A DNA stretch of 44,152 nt from Candidatus Zambryskiibacteriota bacterium (GCA_003233455.1 QILQ01000048.1:1-44152); one strand, 5' to 3'. Counted from the stretch's first letter, positions 1,981 to 40,592 are shown. Notes: generated from the letters alone by a model not told the origin. Translations and numbers: made by a program.

Positions 1981-4377
1981 TTAAGAATGGTGCATTAATT
2001 TTATTTGTAAATCTTTCATCAACTCGGTAATTTGCATCCAAAGGAAAGTCCAAAGCCATACGAATGCCGCTGTTTTTAAAGATATGCCCGCTGGCATTAA
2101 GAATCCGGTTATGGCCAATATAGTCGCGATAATTTGAGTAGTGGTGGTAGCTATAATTACCGCCCTGCTTGGCAAAAATTTAAACCATCGTTCTTTGGTA
2201 TGAGCCACATAAATCAACATATGTCCAGATATGGTAAGCTTGAGGAAAAACATAGTTTGGATAATAGGCAAAGACAAATGCAGGAAGTTTTTCATCAATA
2301 AAAAGAATATAATACTGTTTAATATTCCAACAGAACCAAACAACAAACTTATGCCAAGCCTTCTTTTAGCTTTTATTTCCAAAGGTTTGGTAGAAATTTT
2401 TACTCTATCAACAGCTAAAGAAATAATCGGAATATCATTTAAAAAAGCTAAAAGAATAATCTGGATAGGCACTAATGGATAAGAACCGTACCACAAACCA
2501 AGCACTAAAATAGTAATAACTAATCTGAAACTTTCTGAAATTCTATAAACCGAATAATTGTAAAGTCGGATAAATATTTTCCGCGATTCCAAAATAGCGT
2601 CTTTTATAACGGAAATACCTTGACCAAGAAGGACAATATCAGCCATACTTTTTAAAGCGCTAACAGCGCCAGCGACAGCGATGCCAACATTGGCGATTTT
2701 AAGAGCCGGCAAATCATTGATACCATCGCCGGTTACAGCCACCACATAATTAGCTTTAAAAGTTTTGACAATTTCATATTTATCTTTAGGTAAAATTTCC
2801 GCAAAAGTGGCAATATCATTAAACCTGCTTTTTATAGCCTCTTTATTTTCAAAAAACTTTTTGGTTTCTTCCGCGGAAAGCACTTCGCCCGAAAGCGCTA
2901 CTTCTCTAGATATTCTTTCAGCAATTATTTTATTATCACCAGTAAGAATCTTCACATTAATTCCATTTTCTTGCATAAAATGTATCGTTTCTTTTGAACT
3001 TTCATCAAGTGGGTCAGTTAATAAAATTAAACCAACCATATCCATATCTTTCTCTTCATCATTATCTTTTTTTATAGCAACAGCTAAAACTCTAAATCCT
3101 TGAGAAGCTGCTTCATTGATATCTTTTTCAAATTGAGCTGCTTTTTCTTCAGAGTTGAATTTATTAAAGGTTCGTATTATTTGAGGAGCGCCCAAACTCA
3201 CTAACATTTTTTCTTGACCTTTTTGGATAAAAGCGGTGGATCTTTTTCTGTCTGAATCATAAGGAGTGAGATTTAAAATTTCCACTCTAGCTGAAAGGTT
3301 ACTATTTTTTTTAAATCTTTCAGTAATCGCCAGATCAATGGTATCTGGAGTATTTGAAGAAGCGGCGTAACTTGCCAATTCAATAATATCGTCGGCTTTT
3401 AAATTATCTTGATACGAAATAATATTAGTAACACTAATTTTATTTTTGGTTAAAGTTCCGGTCTTGTCGGTTAAAAGCAGATTAACATTGGCTAAGTCTT
3501 GCAAAGCGGAAAGCCTTCTGACTATCACCATTTTTTTAGCAAGTCCCGCGGCACCAATGCTGAGAATAATGGCCATCACTGCCGGTAGAGCAATTGGAAC
3601 TCCAGCAATTATAAGACTTAAATCAAGAGTCAAAAGTTCTTCAATTGAAAATCCCTTAAGAAAGAGAACAGTCGTTAAAATCAAAACTGACACAATGCTT
3701 ATAATCATCAAAAACCGAGTAATGCTCAAAATATCTTTTTCTAAAATACTTTTTTCGGTCGGTTGCTCTATTGAAAAAATTGTTTTGCCGAAATTGGTAT
3801 TTTTGCCAGTCGCGCTAATTTCAGCTTCAACATTACCGGTAGTGATAAACGAGCCTGAATAAATTTTATCCCCTACTTTTTTATCTTTTGGCATTGATTC
3901 GCCAGTCAACACCGCTTCATTTATTGATAAATTTTTTGAATCTATAACAGTGGCATCAGCCGGAATAATACTTCCTAAACCTAATCTGATATTATCACCC
4001 AGCACCAATTGTTTGGTATTGATAAAAATCCACTTTCCATCTCGTAAGGTTTGAACATTAAATGAGAGTTTATTTTGAAGTTCTTTAATGGCTTTATCCG
4101 CTTTGAATTCTTGCCATTTTTGAATTGAATAATTAACGAAATAAAGCGCTAAAATAAAATAAAAATCAAAAACCCTACCATTCAAAAGCGACAAAATCGC
4201 CGCACCCAAAAGCATAAGCGAGATAGGAGAATAAAGCGGTGCCAAAAGTTTTTTGATAAGTCCACTTTTTTGCTCAACAACATCATTCAAGCCATATTTT
4301 TTTAATCTTTTTTCAGCCTCAGTTGTTGATAATCCCGACTGGTTTTGATTTGTTATTTTTGTTAATGCTTCAACCAT
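1981..4377 (-). CDS. P-type ATPase, P3A (plasma-membrane H+-ATPase-like)
   Basis: TGES, DKTGTLT, TGDGINDLPAL; TM4 IAGVPIALP lacks the PEGL motif; TM6 LAFLNDIP retains the P3A proton-site Asp. Confidence 0.88.
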   Translation of the reverse strand: MVEALTKITNQNQSGLSTTEAEKRLKKYGLNDVVEQKSGLIKKLLAPLYSPISLMLLGAAILSLLNGRVFDFYFILALYFVNYSIQKWQEFKADKAIKELQNKLSFNVQTLRDGKWIFINTKQLVLGDNIRLGLGSIIPADATVIDSKNLSINEAVLTGESMPKDKKVGDKIYSGSFITTGNVEAEISATGKNTNFGKTIFSIEQPTEKSILEKDILSITRFLMIISIVSVLILTTVLFLKGFSIEELLTLDLSLIIAGVPIALPAVMAIILSIGAAGLAKKMVIVRRLSALQDLANVNLLLTDKTGTLTKNKISVTNIISYQDNLKADDIIELASYAASSNTPDTIDLAITERFKKNSNLSARVEILNLTPYDSDRKRSTAFIQKGQEKMLVSLGAPQIIRTFNKFNSEEKAAQFEKDINEAASQGFRVLAVAIKKDNDEEKDMDMVGLILLTDPLDESSKETIHFMQENGINVKILTGDNKIIAERISREVALSGEVLSAEETKKFFENKEAIKSRFNDIATFAEILPKDKYEIVKTFKANYVVAVTGDGINDLPALKIANVGIAVAGAVSALKSMADIVLLGQGISVIKDAILESRKIFIRLYNYSVYRISESFRLVITILVLGLWYGSYPLVPIQIILLAFLNDIPIISLAVDRVKISTKPLEIKAKRRLGISLLFGSVGILNSIIFFLLMKNFLHLSLPIIQTMFFLKLTISGHMLIYVAHTKERWFKFLPSRAVIIATTTTQIIATILAITGFLMPAGISLKTAAFVWLWTFLWMQITELMKDLQIKLMHHS

Positions 4378-10974: not shown

Positions 10975-11601
10975 ATGAACTCTATAGAAAAACTAATACA
11001 AATATTTTCCAATTTTCCGGGTATCGGACCGCGACAAGCTCGGCGATTTGTTTATTATTTGCTGACCAGAGCAAATGGAACTTTAGAAGAACTTTCTCAA
11101 AATATAAAAGATTTAAAAAATGATGTAATAATGTGTGCTGATTGTCAAAGATTTTTTGAGCACAAAAATAACAATTACAATGGTGCCCATTGTAAACATT
11201 GTAAAATATGTTCTGACAAAACTAGAGATGACTCTATTTTGATGTTAGTCCAAAGAGACGCAGACTTGGAATCAATAGAAAAAAACGGTGAATTTAAAGG
11301 TCTTTATTTTGTACTCGGAGGTTCGGTTCCGATATTAGAAAAAGAACCGGAAAAAAGAATTCGCATTAAAGAATTGAAAAAATTCCTTGAAAGAAAAGAA
11401 AATTTGAAAGAAATAATATTGGGAGTAAATTGGAATCCGGAAGGAGAAAATACCGGAGATTTTGTAGAAAAATTTATAAAACCGATTACAGAAAAAAATA
11501 AAATAAAAATTTCTCGTTTAGGTAAAGGACTTTCTATGGGTACCGAATTAGAGTATGCTGATAGTGAGACAATGAAAAATGCTTTGAAAAATAGGAGCTA
11601 A
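10975..11601 (+). CDS. recR: Recombination mediator RecR
   Basis: HhH motif FPGIGPRQARR, C4 zinc finger, Toprim domain (YFVLGG, NPEGE, GTELEYAD). Confidence 0.95.
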   Translation: MNSIEKLIQIFSNFPGIGPRQARRFVYYLLTRANGTLEELSQNIKDLKNDVIMCADCQRFFEHKNNNYNGAHCKHCKICSDKTRDDSILMLVQRDADLESIEKNGEFKGLYFVLGGSVPILEKEPEKRIRIKELKKFLERKENLKEIILGVNWNPEGENTGDFVEKFIKPITEKNKIKISRLGKGLSMGTELEYADSETMKNALKNRS

Positions 11602-11607
11602 AAAATT

Positions 11608-12189
11608 ATGAGCATCCAAAAATCTTATTTATATATTTTAATAACCGGCAGTATTATTGGTTTTGGAGCTTCTTTTTTGTTAATGATAGATACTTTAAAA
11701 CTTATAAAAAATCCGACCGCAATTCTTCCTTGCAATATTAATCCGTTTGTTAGCTGTGCTTCGGTTGCTGGTGCGTGGCAAAGCGAGATTTTTGGCTTCC
11801 CAAATCCCCTTTTAGGAATTGTATTTTTCAGTATGCTTTTAGTTATCGGTTTGATGCTTTATTTTAGAGGCAAAGTCGGTAGATTATTTTGGCTTTTGGT
11901 AAATCTAGGCACCCTAACCGCAATGTCTTTTGTTGTTTGGTTTTTCTACCAAAGTGTTTACAACATCGGCTCACTCTGTATCTACTGTATGGTAGTATGG
12001 ACAGTCACTTGGCCTATTTTTCTCTACACCACTATATGGAATTTCAAAGAAGAACATTTTAATGTTAAACACCGAGTGTTCAACATTTTAAATTTTGTTT
12101 CTCGTTATCATTTTCAAATTTTAATAGGATGGTATTTGATTATAGTTTTTCTAATATTATTTCATTTCCGCGATTTCTTTTTTGCTTAA
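11608..12189 (+). CDS. Vitamin K epoxide reductase (VKOR) family protein
   Basis: CNINPFVSC loop cysteines, FGFPNPLLG, LCIYC CxxC, TM helices. Confidence 0.92.
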   Translation: MSIQKSYLYILITGSIIGFGASFLLMIDTLKLIKNPTAILPCNINPFVSCASVAGAWQSEIFGFPNPLLGIVFFSMLLVIGLMLYFRGKVGRLFWLLVNLGTLTAMSFVVWFFYQSVYNIGSLCIYCMVVWTVTWPIFLYTTIWNFKEEHFNVKHRVFNILNFVSRYHFQILIGWYLIIVFLILFHFRDFFFA

Positions 12190-17468: not shown

Positions 17469-17497
17469 CTATACTAAACGCTCGGCGTCTAATATAG
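17469..17497. repeat. 29-bp palindromic repeat, copy 1 (between convergent genes)
   Basis: CTATACTAAACGCTCGGCGTCTAATATAG; its reverse complement matches 43619-43647 at 28/29. Confidence 0.8.
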
Positions 17498-38853: not shown

Positions 38854-39120
38854 TTATACTTTATTTTCTTTACTAAAGAATTCCTTTAATCTTTTTCCTA
38901 CTAATCTTCTACCTTGAGTAGTTTTTAAATATCCTTCCCTTCTTTTACTATCATTTTTATTCAAACAGGCTTCATAATAAATAAGCTTCCAGGGCTTATA
39001 TCTTTTAGTAGAAGGAGTTACACCTTTATTATGTTCTACTAATCTACGTTTTAAATCATTAGTTCGTCCAGTATAAATTTCCCCATTTTTTTCACTTTGT
39101 AAAATATAATTATAAAACAT
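38854..39120 (-). CDS. Stand-alone GIY-YIG nuclease family protein
   Basis: YNYILQS, YTGRT.DL.RRL.EHN, PWKLIYYE, RE.YLK. Confidence 0.92.
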   Translation of the reverse strand: MFYNYILQSEKNGEIYTGRTNDLKRRLVEHNKGVTPSTKRYKPWKLIYYEACLNKNDSKRREGYLKTTQGRRLVGKRLKEFFSKENKV

Positions 39121-39149: not shown

Positions 39150-40592
39150 TTACTTAATTATTTTTTTCAGAGCTATAATCAGTTTATCTAAGTCAGTTTT
39201 TTTAGTATCACGACCGAGAGTAAAGCGAAGAGAAGATGAGGCGCATTCCGGTTTACCTAAACTTTCAATAACATAAGAGCTATTTTCCAACGAGAGAGTA
39301 TGACAGGCCGAAGCGGCCGAAACAGCAAAACCAAGAGTATCTAATTTAATAACAAGAAATTCCGAATTTAAAGGGTCACCCTTTGGGGCAAAATTCTTCA
39401 AGGGTGACCCTTGGGAACCAAAAGCCAAAGGCAGTTCTCTCGAGGTAGGAATCTTCAAGAGTAACTCTTGGGATTGGGAACCAAAAGCCAAGGGCAACCC
39501 TTGAACTGCCCCTGCCCCAAAGGGTTGCCTTTGGCTTTTTCCAAAACAAATATTTATATTATTCGGCAATCTGTTTTCTAAATCACCATTAAGTGAAGAA
39601 TTCGGAATTTCTTTTAAAATTTTAGAGATAGCGTAGTCGCGTAATTTCGTTAAACGCAACGACTCTTTCTCTCTCATTTTAACGGTTATTTCTAAAGCCT
39701 TAGCCAAACCGACCGCGCCAACCACATTTTCTGTCCCCGGTTTTAAACCTCTTTCTTGTCCTCCGCCAAAAATAATAGGAGAAATGTTTGTTCCATTTTT
39801 AACTACCAAAATTCCCATCCCTTTTGGTCCATATATTTTAATACCGTCAAAAATAAGCAAGTCAGCTCCTAATCTTTCCAGAGAAACTTTTTCATAAGCG
39901 ATACTTTGACCAGCATCAACCAAAAAATATGGTTCCACCAAAGGCTTATTTTGTACAAGGTTTAACCTTGTATTTTTTTTGTATTCTTTGATTATTTTTG
40001 AGATTTTTTGAATTGGTTGTATTGTCCCGATTTCACTGTTTGCATGTTGAACTATCACCAAAACAGTATTTTCTTTTATTTCTTTTTTTATTGATTCTGG
40101 ACTAATAATTCCTTTTTTATTCGGAGCAACAAAAGAAACTTCTATTTTTTTTTCTTTGAGTAAATATTTTATTGGTTCCAAAACAGCCGAATGCTCTATT
40201 AAAGAAACTATTATATGAGAAATTAAAGGGTCACCCTTTGGGGCAAAATTCTTCAAGGGTGATCCTTGGGAACCAAAAGCCAAGGGCAACCCTTGAACTG
40301 CCCCTGCCCCAAAGGGTTGTCCTTGATTTCTGATAACACCTAAAATGGCAATATTTAATGACTCAGTGCCACCACTGGTAAAAAATATCTCACTGGCGCG
40401 ACAACGCAACAAGCGAGCTATTTTTATTCTAGCTTTCTCTAATGTTTCTTTGGTTATCTCTCCTTCTGTATGCAAAGAAGAAGGATTAGCCCAAAATTTT
40501 TTTTGGGTTTTTTCCATTTCTTTCGCCACTTTATAATCAATCGGTGTAGCCGCAGCGTAGTCTAAAAATATTCTTTGAGTTATTTTTTTCAT
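39150..40592 (-). CDS. iscS: Cysteine desulfurase (IscS/NifS group I) with in-frame repeat insertions
   Basis: LDYAAATP, FTSGGTES, NSEIGT, DAGQS, KIYGPKG (PLP Lys), GGGQE, SAASAC (catalytic Cys). Confidence 0.92.
   Translation of the reverse strand: MKKITQRIFLDYAAATPIDYKVAKEMEKTQKKFWANPSSLHTEGEITKETLEKARIKIARLLRCRASEIFFTSGGTESLNIAILGVIRNQGQPFGAGAVQGLPLAFGSQGSPLKNFAPKGDPLISHIIVSLIEHSAVLEPIKYLLKEKKIEVSFVAPNKKGIISPESIKKEIKENTVLVIVQHANSEIGTIQPIQKISKIIKEYKKNTRLNLVQNKPLVEPYFLVDAGQSIAYEKVSLERLGADLLIFDGIKIYGPKGMGILVVKNGTNISPIIFGGGQERGLKPGTENVVGAVGLAKALEITVKMREKESLRLTKLRDYAISKILKEIPNSSLNGDLENRLPNNINICFGKSQRQPFGAGAVQGLPLAFGSQSQELLLKIPTSRELPLAFGSQGSPLKNFAPKGDPLNSEFLVIKLDTLGFAVSAASACHTLSLENSSYVIESLGKPECASSSLRFTLGRDTKKTDLDKLIIALKKIIK
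39370..39533. repeat. In-frame array of six ~15-bp palindromes inside iscS
   Basis: (C/A)AAGGGYNACCCTT(G/T)-type units at 39370, 39399, 39426 (degenerate), 39456, 39489, 39519. Confidence 0.9.
40225..40325. repeat. In-frame array of four ~15-bp palindromes inside iscS
   Basis: Units at 40225, 40254, 40281, 40311; spacers identical to those of the 39370-39533 array. Confidence 0.9.

Follow-up and report, generated by a model that had tools for sequence, protein, structure and literature searches.

Hairpin repeats lying in frame within a cysteine desulfurase gene of Candidatus Zambryskiibacteriota, probably clusters of the REP/RAYT type

Short palindromic repeats occur in bacterial genomes in several described arrangements, which we summarize here from parts of the sources cited. 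Among repetitive extragenic palindromic (REP) sequences, a REPIN is an inverted repeat doublet around a spacer that forms a long hairpin (PMC3337134), and a bacterial interspersed mosaic element (BIME) is a cluster of repeats in alternating orientation (PMC2817692). REP superfamilies carry a GTAG or CGTC tag at one palindrome end (PMC3733652), and the REP-associated tyrosine transposases (RAYTs) are typically single-copy (10.1101/119735). By definition, REP and REPIN repeats lie outside genes, and the transposases that go with them count as domesticated genes in single copy. Rickettsia palindromic elements (RPEs) are intragenic: they are repeats of about 150 bp that lie in frame in many unrelated housekeeping genes, each family is described as encoding a conserved peptide, and the enzyme that moves them is unnamed in the part of PMC10969869 on which we draw. 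Guide RNA arrays of the tandem interspaced kind (TIGR arrays), which occur in phages and in bacteria of the candidate phyla radiation (CPR), have 8–12-nt repeats and 9-nt spacers and stand beside Nop-domain genes (PMC12045711). Here we describe hairpin-forming inserts in the cysteine desulfurase gene of a Candidatus Zambryskiibacteriota bacterium, located on a 44,152-base stretch of DNA (GCA_003233455.1 QILQ01000048.1:1-44152) that we call the window. In this one small genome the two pictures meet, as it contains hairpin repeats and candidate HUH transposases, and more than half of its palindromes are intragenic. An earlier reading of the window (the original prediction) had named REP/BIME arrays and Rickettsia palindromic elements as precedents, and both are apt.

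We consider it probable that the inserts are hairpin-repeat clusters of the REP/RAYT type that are read through as disordered loops, with the DNA hairpin under selection or homogenization and with mobilization by a transposase. The 480-aa open reading frame (ORF) that carries them matches the Pfam family Aminotran_5 (PF00266, E 7.9e-51), and its best NCBIfam matches are NifS/IscS-type models. Its score lies below every NCBIfam equivalog cut-off, which may be explained by the inserts splitting the match. The columns of Lys252, which binds pyridoxal phosphate (PLP), and of the catalytic Cys430 are invariant in an alignment of 33 sequences, so the catalytic motifs are intact, as had been proposed. 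The solved IscS structure 4R5F matches the protein in three blocks (E 2e-64). At site A, the desulfurase has 36 residues where the solved chain has 6; at site B, it has 57 where the solved chain has 2; and at a third site about 16 more residues are without counterpart. An AlphaFold model built on the 33-sequence alignment has a confident core, with a predicted local distance difference test score (pLDDT) of at least 90 at 312 of 480 residues; the score falls under 50 at residues 1-4, 94-114, and 354-404 and nowhere else. The inserts are 52.5% GC, compared to 33.1% for the remaining desulfurase gene.

Table 1. Features of the desulfurase locus, in window positions
Feature	Position	Strand	Description
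Host gene, class-V aminotransferase / NifS-IscS-type cysteine desulfurase	39150..40592	-	480-aa ORF; Pfam, NCBIfam, 4R5F alignment
Insert A	40226..40325		Residues ~90-124; pair of oppositely oriented hairpin units, short linker between
Unit A1	40226..40269	-	Arms AAGGGTCACCCTT / AAGGGTGATCCTT; 16-nt spacer TGGGGCAAAATTCTTC (second spacer type)
Unit A2	40280..40326	+	Arms AAGGGCAACCCTT / AAGGGTTGTCCTT; conserved 17-nt spacer GAACTGCCCCTGCCCCA
Insert B	39371..39533		Residues ~353-408; A-like composite plus extra degenerate middle unit
Unit B1	39371..39414	-	Counterpart of A1; perfect arms AAGGGTCACCCTT / AAGGGTGACCCTT
Degenerate third unit of insert B	39421..39469	-	60% like B1; holds arm AAGAGTAACTCTT
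Unit B3	39488..39533	+	Counterpart of A2; stem grows to 20 bp (AAAAGCCAAGGGCAACCCTT / AAGGGTTGCCTTTGGCTTTT)
Third insert	39951..39969		Single 19-nt palindrome TACAAGGTTTAACCTTGTA; predicted fold z -4.67
Stand-alone GIY-YIG nuclease gene	38854-39120	-	88 aa; directly downstream of desulfurase

The palindromic motif AAGGGTNACCCTT, allowing up to two mismatches, has ten matches in the window, nine within blocks A and B and one at 39957, while shuffled sequences gave a mean of 1.38 and none of 100 shuffles reached ten. The arms are spaced 27-33 nt apart in both inserts, and identity between the two blocks is 97% over 66 nt and 100% over 54 nt. The peptide QPFGAGAVQGLPLAFGSQ appears twice in the desulfurase, from residues 92 and 356, as does GSPLKNFAPKGDPL, from residues 110 and 395. 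Both the palindromic blocks and the doubled peptides are as the original prediction described them. Its count of two array copies needs amending: A and B are confirmed, but B consists of A plus an internal degenerate unit, and the third insert had been missed. Its view of the unit does not survive either, as the spacers that it called distinct are conserved modules present at other loci, and the working unit is not a palindrome-spacer array but a complementary arm pair that forms a 13-20-bp stem.

Both large inserts are predicted to fold strongly as single-stranded DNA, at -31.5 kcal/mol (z -5.5 against shuffles) for insert A and -41.1 kcal/mol (z -4.67) for insert B. In the predicted fold, insert A as a whole is also one long imperfect palindrome. 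The outer units of A and of B match the repeat model on opposite strands, and the alternating orientation and regular spacing of the two inserts are those by which a BIME is recognized. The palindrome that makes up the third insert belongs to a different family, one that flanks a RAYT-like gene on contig C8 (1843-2490).

The unit is not private to the desulfurase. We searched the source genome, which is Patescibacteria-like and comprises 736,150 bases on 52 contigs (32.7% GC, 96.6% complete). The recurring unit is a 13-nt arm, the conserved 17-nt spacer GAACTGCCCCTGCCCCA, and the complementary arm, giving a doublet of about 45 nt whose arms are small palindromes in their own right, on the pattern CAAGGG-NNN-CCCTTG; the second spacer type, TGGGGCAAAATTCTTC, is found in the other unit of each insert. 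An nhmmer search recovered 21 units at E<0.01, and a covariance model of the unit gave 54 matches (E 0.01 or better). Single arms of the CAAGGGnnnCCCTTG type (at most one mismatch) number 33. The family is thus multi-copy, as a genome scan had been expected to reveal. Beyond this genome, an exact 25-nt word spanning spacer and arm was found on three contigs among species-representative genomes, titled Ca. Zambryskibacteria or Patescibacteria group, and had no match in viral contigs. No direct target duplication was visible at the units.

Alignment of 19 units revealed that the 19-bp stem is paired in 85.3% of cells, compared to 28-53% in slid controls. Double changes occur at 12 of the 19 stem pairs, and none of 500 shuffles reached the observed covariation score. 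The arm AAGAGTAACTCTT, singled out earlier for its compensatory change, lies at 39457-39469, where it is self-complementary and folds on itself in the predicted structure; it is a small case of this wider covariation. Of the 21 units, 14 fall within ORFs of 100 aa or longer, spread over 11 such ORFs. Half of the 14 are in sense and half in antisense orientation to the gene (seven each), and the peptides they would encode are unrelated. Essential enzymes are among the hosts of the hairpin repeats of this genome, such as the cysteine desulfurase and LepA, as well as a topoisomerase I and a DNA ligase, the last two judged by sequence alone. Together, stem covariation, unrelated peptides, and the higher conservation of insert DNA described below support the idea, already put forward in the original prediction, that the hairpin DNA rather than the peptide is conserved.

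All 14 intragenic units are free of stop codons in the host frame. An average unit is open in 3.2 of six frames, compared to 2.4 for random 55-mers of the genome. As this bias is only modest, we rejected the idea that the units are stop-free by design; with only 3.2 frames open, many insertions must be lost to selection, to which most of the filtering would fall. Each of the seven units that are not in long ORFs lies between complete genes, none of them splitting a gene, and insert lengths preserve the reading frame in the comparisons with 4R5F and among LepA proteins. These observations bear on the proposal that the inserts are removed from the message, or bypassed by the ribosome, to give an enzyme without insert residues. 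GC-rich hairpin inserts are bypassed by ribosomes in yeast mitochondria. For the desulfurase inserts we found no direct support for removal, which would require neither the openness seen in 14 of 14 units, nor insert lengths that keep the frame, nor the sparing of genes by the other seven units. We judge this explanation very improbable.

The same loops are occupied differently in related bacteria. With the covariance model (E 0.01 or better), 14 of 16 genomes of the same genus had at least one match (range 0-55). Neither of two genomes from sister genera of the same family had one, and six of 12 from other families of the order had 1-14 each, far weaker than those in the genus. Among orthologs from the genus and from metagenomes, some desulfurase loops lack any insert and others contain a single palindrome, a single unit, or doublets with other arms, so that, as an alignment of orthologs had been expected to tell, the insert is present, absent, or different from one relative to the next. 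In two species, the empty form of the loop measures 15 residues from PNNIN to DSEF. Some orthologs have doublets with a common spacer and different arms, and a metagenome contig (L068) has a doublet with AAAGTCGGACTTT arms at both site A and site B. Since sites A and B are alike within a genome and unlike between genomes in two species, these data suggest homogenization within genomes. Three paralogous desulfurase genes of relatives also have a model match at site A, as judged by coordinates. A metagenome scan for strain-level relatives returned a best match that was just 71% identical.

In LepA, the boundaries are cleaner than in the desulfurase. The linker that follows K-[IV]-P-x-P has seven residues in four of the 14 genus orthologs printed and 11-29 residues, mostly palindromic, in the rest of those 14. 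In the source genome it has 22 residues, 15 above the empty form, which is exactly one 45-nt doublet. Four species have a common outer stem, (C/G)TTGCCAA, at the LepA site, with cores that differ and are either single palindromes or doublets. In LepA proteins of the genus (loci L162-L188), at least four loops are hypervariable and have insertions specific to a lineage, so the loop that bears the doublet is not the only one.

Other species, assembled independently, have these composites at these loops as well, which speaks against an assembly artifact as the source of the inserts. A guide RNA array of the CRISPR or TIGR type might be suggested by the regular spacing of short palindromes, and TIGR arrays, which share with our inserts short interspaced repeats or stem-loops, have been described in the same bacterial group in part of PMC12045711. 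However, the supposed spacers are conserved repeats, the unit sizes differ from those of TIGR arrays, and the arrays lie inside an ORF. The Nop domain (PF01798) had no match in this 96.6% complete genome. On the strength of the conserved spacers, the unit sizes, and the absent Nop domain, we rejected CRISPR and TIGR arrays, and we give the artifact or array explanation almost no weight.

Comparison of the inserts with their counterparts in relatives revealed that the insert DNA has changed less than the gene around it. Insert A is 89.5% identical to its counterpart in genome G009 (85.7% at third codon positions), while the rest of the desulfurase gene is 74.4% identical (56.8% at third positions). 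The site B unit that is common to genome G012 is 90% identical, compared to 76% for the gene. As the inserts are more conserved than their host gene, and A and B are 97-100% alike, they do not drift like free peptide loops. From these comparisons, the insert sequences appear to be either constrained or repeatedly homogenized at the DNA level.

Such conservation, third codon positions included, would also be expected if the hairpins were kept for a cellular function, such as ribosome slowing or mRNA stability through mRNA structure, or a site bound by a DNA-binding protein, with the peptides as a by-product. The strong stem covariation and the fold energies well below those of shuffles fit this explanation as well. 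However, species differ freely in how a given loop is occupied, the empty state included, and with units divided equally between sense and antisense the RNA would differ from gene to gene. No Rfam family reached threshold; the only matches were to sub-threshold animal and plant microRNA models and one bacterial small RNA model. As homogenization among copies accounts for the conservation without any function, we consider a cellular role quite improbable.

The genome also encodes candidates for an enzyme that could move and homogenize the repeats. A search for linked RAYT/HUH genes, which the original prediction had recommended, was productive: Pfam Y1_Tnp has ten matches in the source genome, a protein search found 11 RAYT-like genes, and most of these are flanked by their own short palindrome, with more copies inside other genes. 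None of eight aligned paralogs departs from the H-F-H (HUH) triplet or from a Y-I-H-x-N-P motif. Although a single RAYT-like protein had no match among solved structures, the eight-paralog profile has Escherichia coli TnpA-REP (4ER8) as its best solved match (E 1.3e-6), with both motifs aligned; against 2XM3, a transposase of the IS200 family, it does no better than E 0.11. The paralog on contig C10 has, at the end of its gene, a palindrome with the CAAGGG...CCCTTG core seen in the arms of the desulfurase inserts. The protein search found 1-7 RAYT-like genes in each of 24 relatives and none at threshold in six more. Elsewhere in the order, in a genome from a different family, a RAYT-like gene has flanking palindromes and a doublet nearby. 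Orthologs of one paralog in other species have palindromes with a common outer stem and different cores. A further RAYT-like gene (C6:5033-5436) has an internal deletion that removes the HUH region, and its flanking palindromes differ in core type from one side to the other.

The clearest rival to transposase-driven movement is that the unit is a selfish element resembling an RPE that spreads by recombination or by replication slippage at hairpins, with the RAYT-like genes serving only their own palindromes. The exact doublet brackets no transposase gene, and the occurrence of one spacer with several arm types fits recombination between repeats. RPEs, moreover, enter many genes in frame with no transposase named for them in the part of PMC10969869 cited above. 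Set against this, the arms have the build and the core of the palindromes that flank RAYT-like genes. In addition, unit-rich genomes hold 3-7 RAYT-like genes, while each of the two genus genomes that lack a model match has just one RAYT-like match, a distant one; this correlation is weak, and the genomes are related. We think such an element unlikely, though less so than the other alternatives discussed here.

Several observations count against the REP/RAYT-type reading that we prefer. The intragenic share of the palindromes (63 of 109) and the eleven transposase copies are unlike classical RAYT/REP systems. In the three paralogs scanned, the NCBIfam RAYT model NF047646 is the top match, but its 46.5-71.9 bits fall short of the cut-off of 80. 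A GTAG or CGTC tetranucleotide lies within 14 nt of an end in only one of 19 units. The C10 paralog has no upstream palindrome and has ATA where its paralogs have ATG, and the exact doublet was found on both sides of no transposase gene in the source genome. Among the best model matches in relatives, a RAYT-like ORF is present at only two of 30 loci, one of which has a flanking repeat from a different family. Finally, genome G016 has 36 model matches, yet the C16 query, a paralog of the C10 gene, lacks a close ortholog there, the best being 46% identical.

A model of REP/RAYT-type movement that takes in these findings is as follows. Two 13-nt arms, inverted around a 16-17-nt spacer, form a hairpin doublet of about 45 nt, and alternating doublets build the composites of about 100 nt and 165 nt in the desulfurase gene. 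The doublet family is one of ten or more palindrome families in the genome, and the 11 RAYT-like HUH-tyrosine transposases, whose catalytic activity is predicted, would most likely cut, copy, and homogenize these palindromes on single-stranded DNA. Single-strand, hairpin-guided cut-and-copy by HUH-Y1 enzymes is the basis of this proposed mechanism; which paralog serves the doublet family is something we infer. Copies would land or persist in permissive surface loops, where a length divisible by three and the lack of stop codons would allow putative read-through as disordered peptide, and selection or homogenization would act on the DNA hairpin rather than on the peptide. The preference for loops may reflect targeting, or it may reflect selection that keeps only harmless insertions; both would give the same picture.

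A more far-reaching version of the REP/RAYT-type reading is one that we offer tentatively, with rather more doubt than belief. In it, REP/RAYT-type systems in these ultra-small bacteria would have multiplied to about ten transposase paralogs, each with its own palindrome, that colonize loops of essential proteins. A hairpin already in a loop would be a fixed docking site, its outer stem staying in place while copying from other repeats replaces or doubles the inner core, and protein loops would evolve through transposase activity. Docking would explain why orthologous loops have common outer stems and different cores, why the palindromes of orthologous transposases share one outer stem and differ in their cores, why sites A and B resemble each other more than either resembles its ortholog, and why insert DNA outlasts the sequence of its host gene.

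The doublet is one of several palindrome families in this genome. A motif census sorted 109 palindromes into ten families, with three loci entered under two families each. ORFs of 100 aa or longer make up 87.8% of the genome and contain 63 of the palindromes, so that coding sequence is depleted of them (binomial p 4e-15), though most are intragenic. Three other families are represented in the window, at 11176-11194 (TACAATGG..CCATTGTA), 12064-12084 (GTTAAACAC..GTGTTCAAC), and 17475-17491 (TAAACGCTCGGCGTCTA). Each of these palindromes matches the flank of a different RAYT-like gene elsewhere, and the first two sit in ORFs of 212 and 195 aa. Families also share host genes: a 373-aa ORF on contig C30 (2782-3900) contains palindromes of three families, at 3165, 3399, and 3735, and in a 795-aa ORF on C15 (5465-7849) the doublet adjoins a palindrome of another family (6526, 6549).

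Two kinds of nuclease gene were considered as partners of the repeats, and both were rejected. Two DUF559 nuclease genes (C16:9913-10750 and C14:8950-9010) are flanked by a different repeat family, ..CCTCACCCCTAGCCCCTCTCCTTAnTAAGGAGAGGGG.., and show no link to the doublet family in this genome. The CCTCACCCCTAGCCCCTCTCCTTAnTAAGGAGAGGGG repeat adjoins intergenic doublet copies on C14 and C15, and in the desulfurase of a relative it appears in translated form as ..NPLSLLRRGGK.. in the third variable loop. The GIY-YIG gene next to the desulfurase is the sole GIY-YIG match in the genome. Among 22 related loci, only one has a GIY-YIG match next to the desulfurase, and it is partial and lies at the edge of the locus. 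With a single copy and a single such neighbor, it was rejected as the mover of the repeats and looks like a stray accessory or mobile gene.

If the link to the transposases is true, it would provide a testable mechanism for in-frame palindromic insertions and a source of loop variation in the proteins of streamlined genomes. It would also be a warning to annotators, as inserts lower family scores and have left this desulfurase below every equivalog cut-off. A literature search joining REP/RAYT terms with Patescibacteria, Parcubacteria, or CPR yielded no such paper among the matches listed, with supplementary files outside the search, and the terms Parcubacteria, Candidatus, and "candidate phyla" do not occur in PMC6006769.

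Comparison with known systems places the repeats closest to the REP, BIME, and REPIN-RAYT group, with which they share many-copy short palindromes, inverted doublets, and alternating clusters, as well as HUH-tyrosine genes that are mostly flanked by their own palindrome and have TnpA-REP as best solved match. For the doublet family itself, the core is borne by the C10 gene alone, on one side. They differ in being mostly intragenic (14 of 21 doublets as well as the majority of the palindromes) where classical repeats are extragenic, and in having 11 paralogs, each with a palindrome type of its own, where RAYTs are typically single-copy in the account cited. The RAYT-like scores lie below the NCBIfam cut-off, and the host is a 0.74-Mb Patescibacteria-like genome while classical hosts are Proteobacteria. 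IS200/IS605 elements and their transposase-less derivatives also have an HUH-Y1 transposase and hairpin ends, and move by a single-strand mechanism without target duplication. Their transposase is a more distant match to our profile, in which the tyrosine motif aligns with the TnpA-REP type. The RPEs, as far as described in PMC10969869, are alike in being in-frame palindromic insertions in unrelated protein genes, and the composites of about 100-165 nt are comparable to their length of about 150 bp; this likeness is one of description. While an RPE family is said to have a conserved peptide, the same DNA unit here falls in several reading frames and in both orientations, and the elements are built of 13-nt arms in a genome that encodes candidate transposases.

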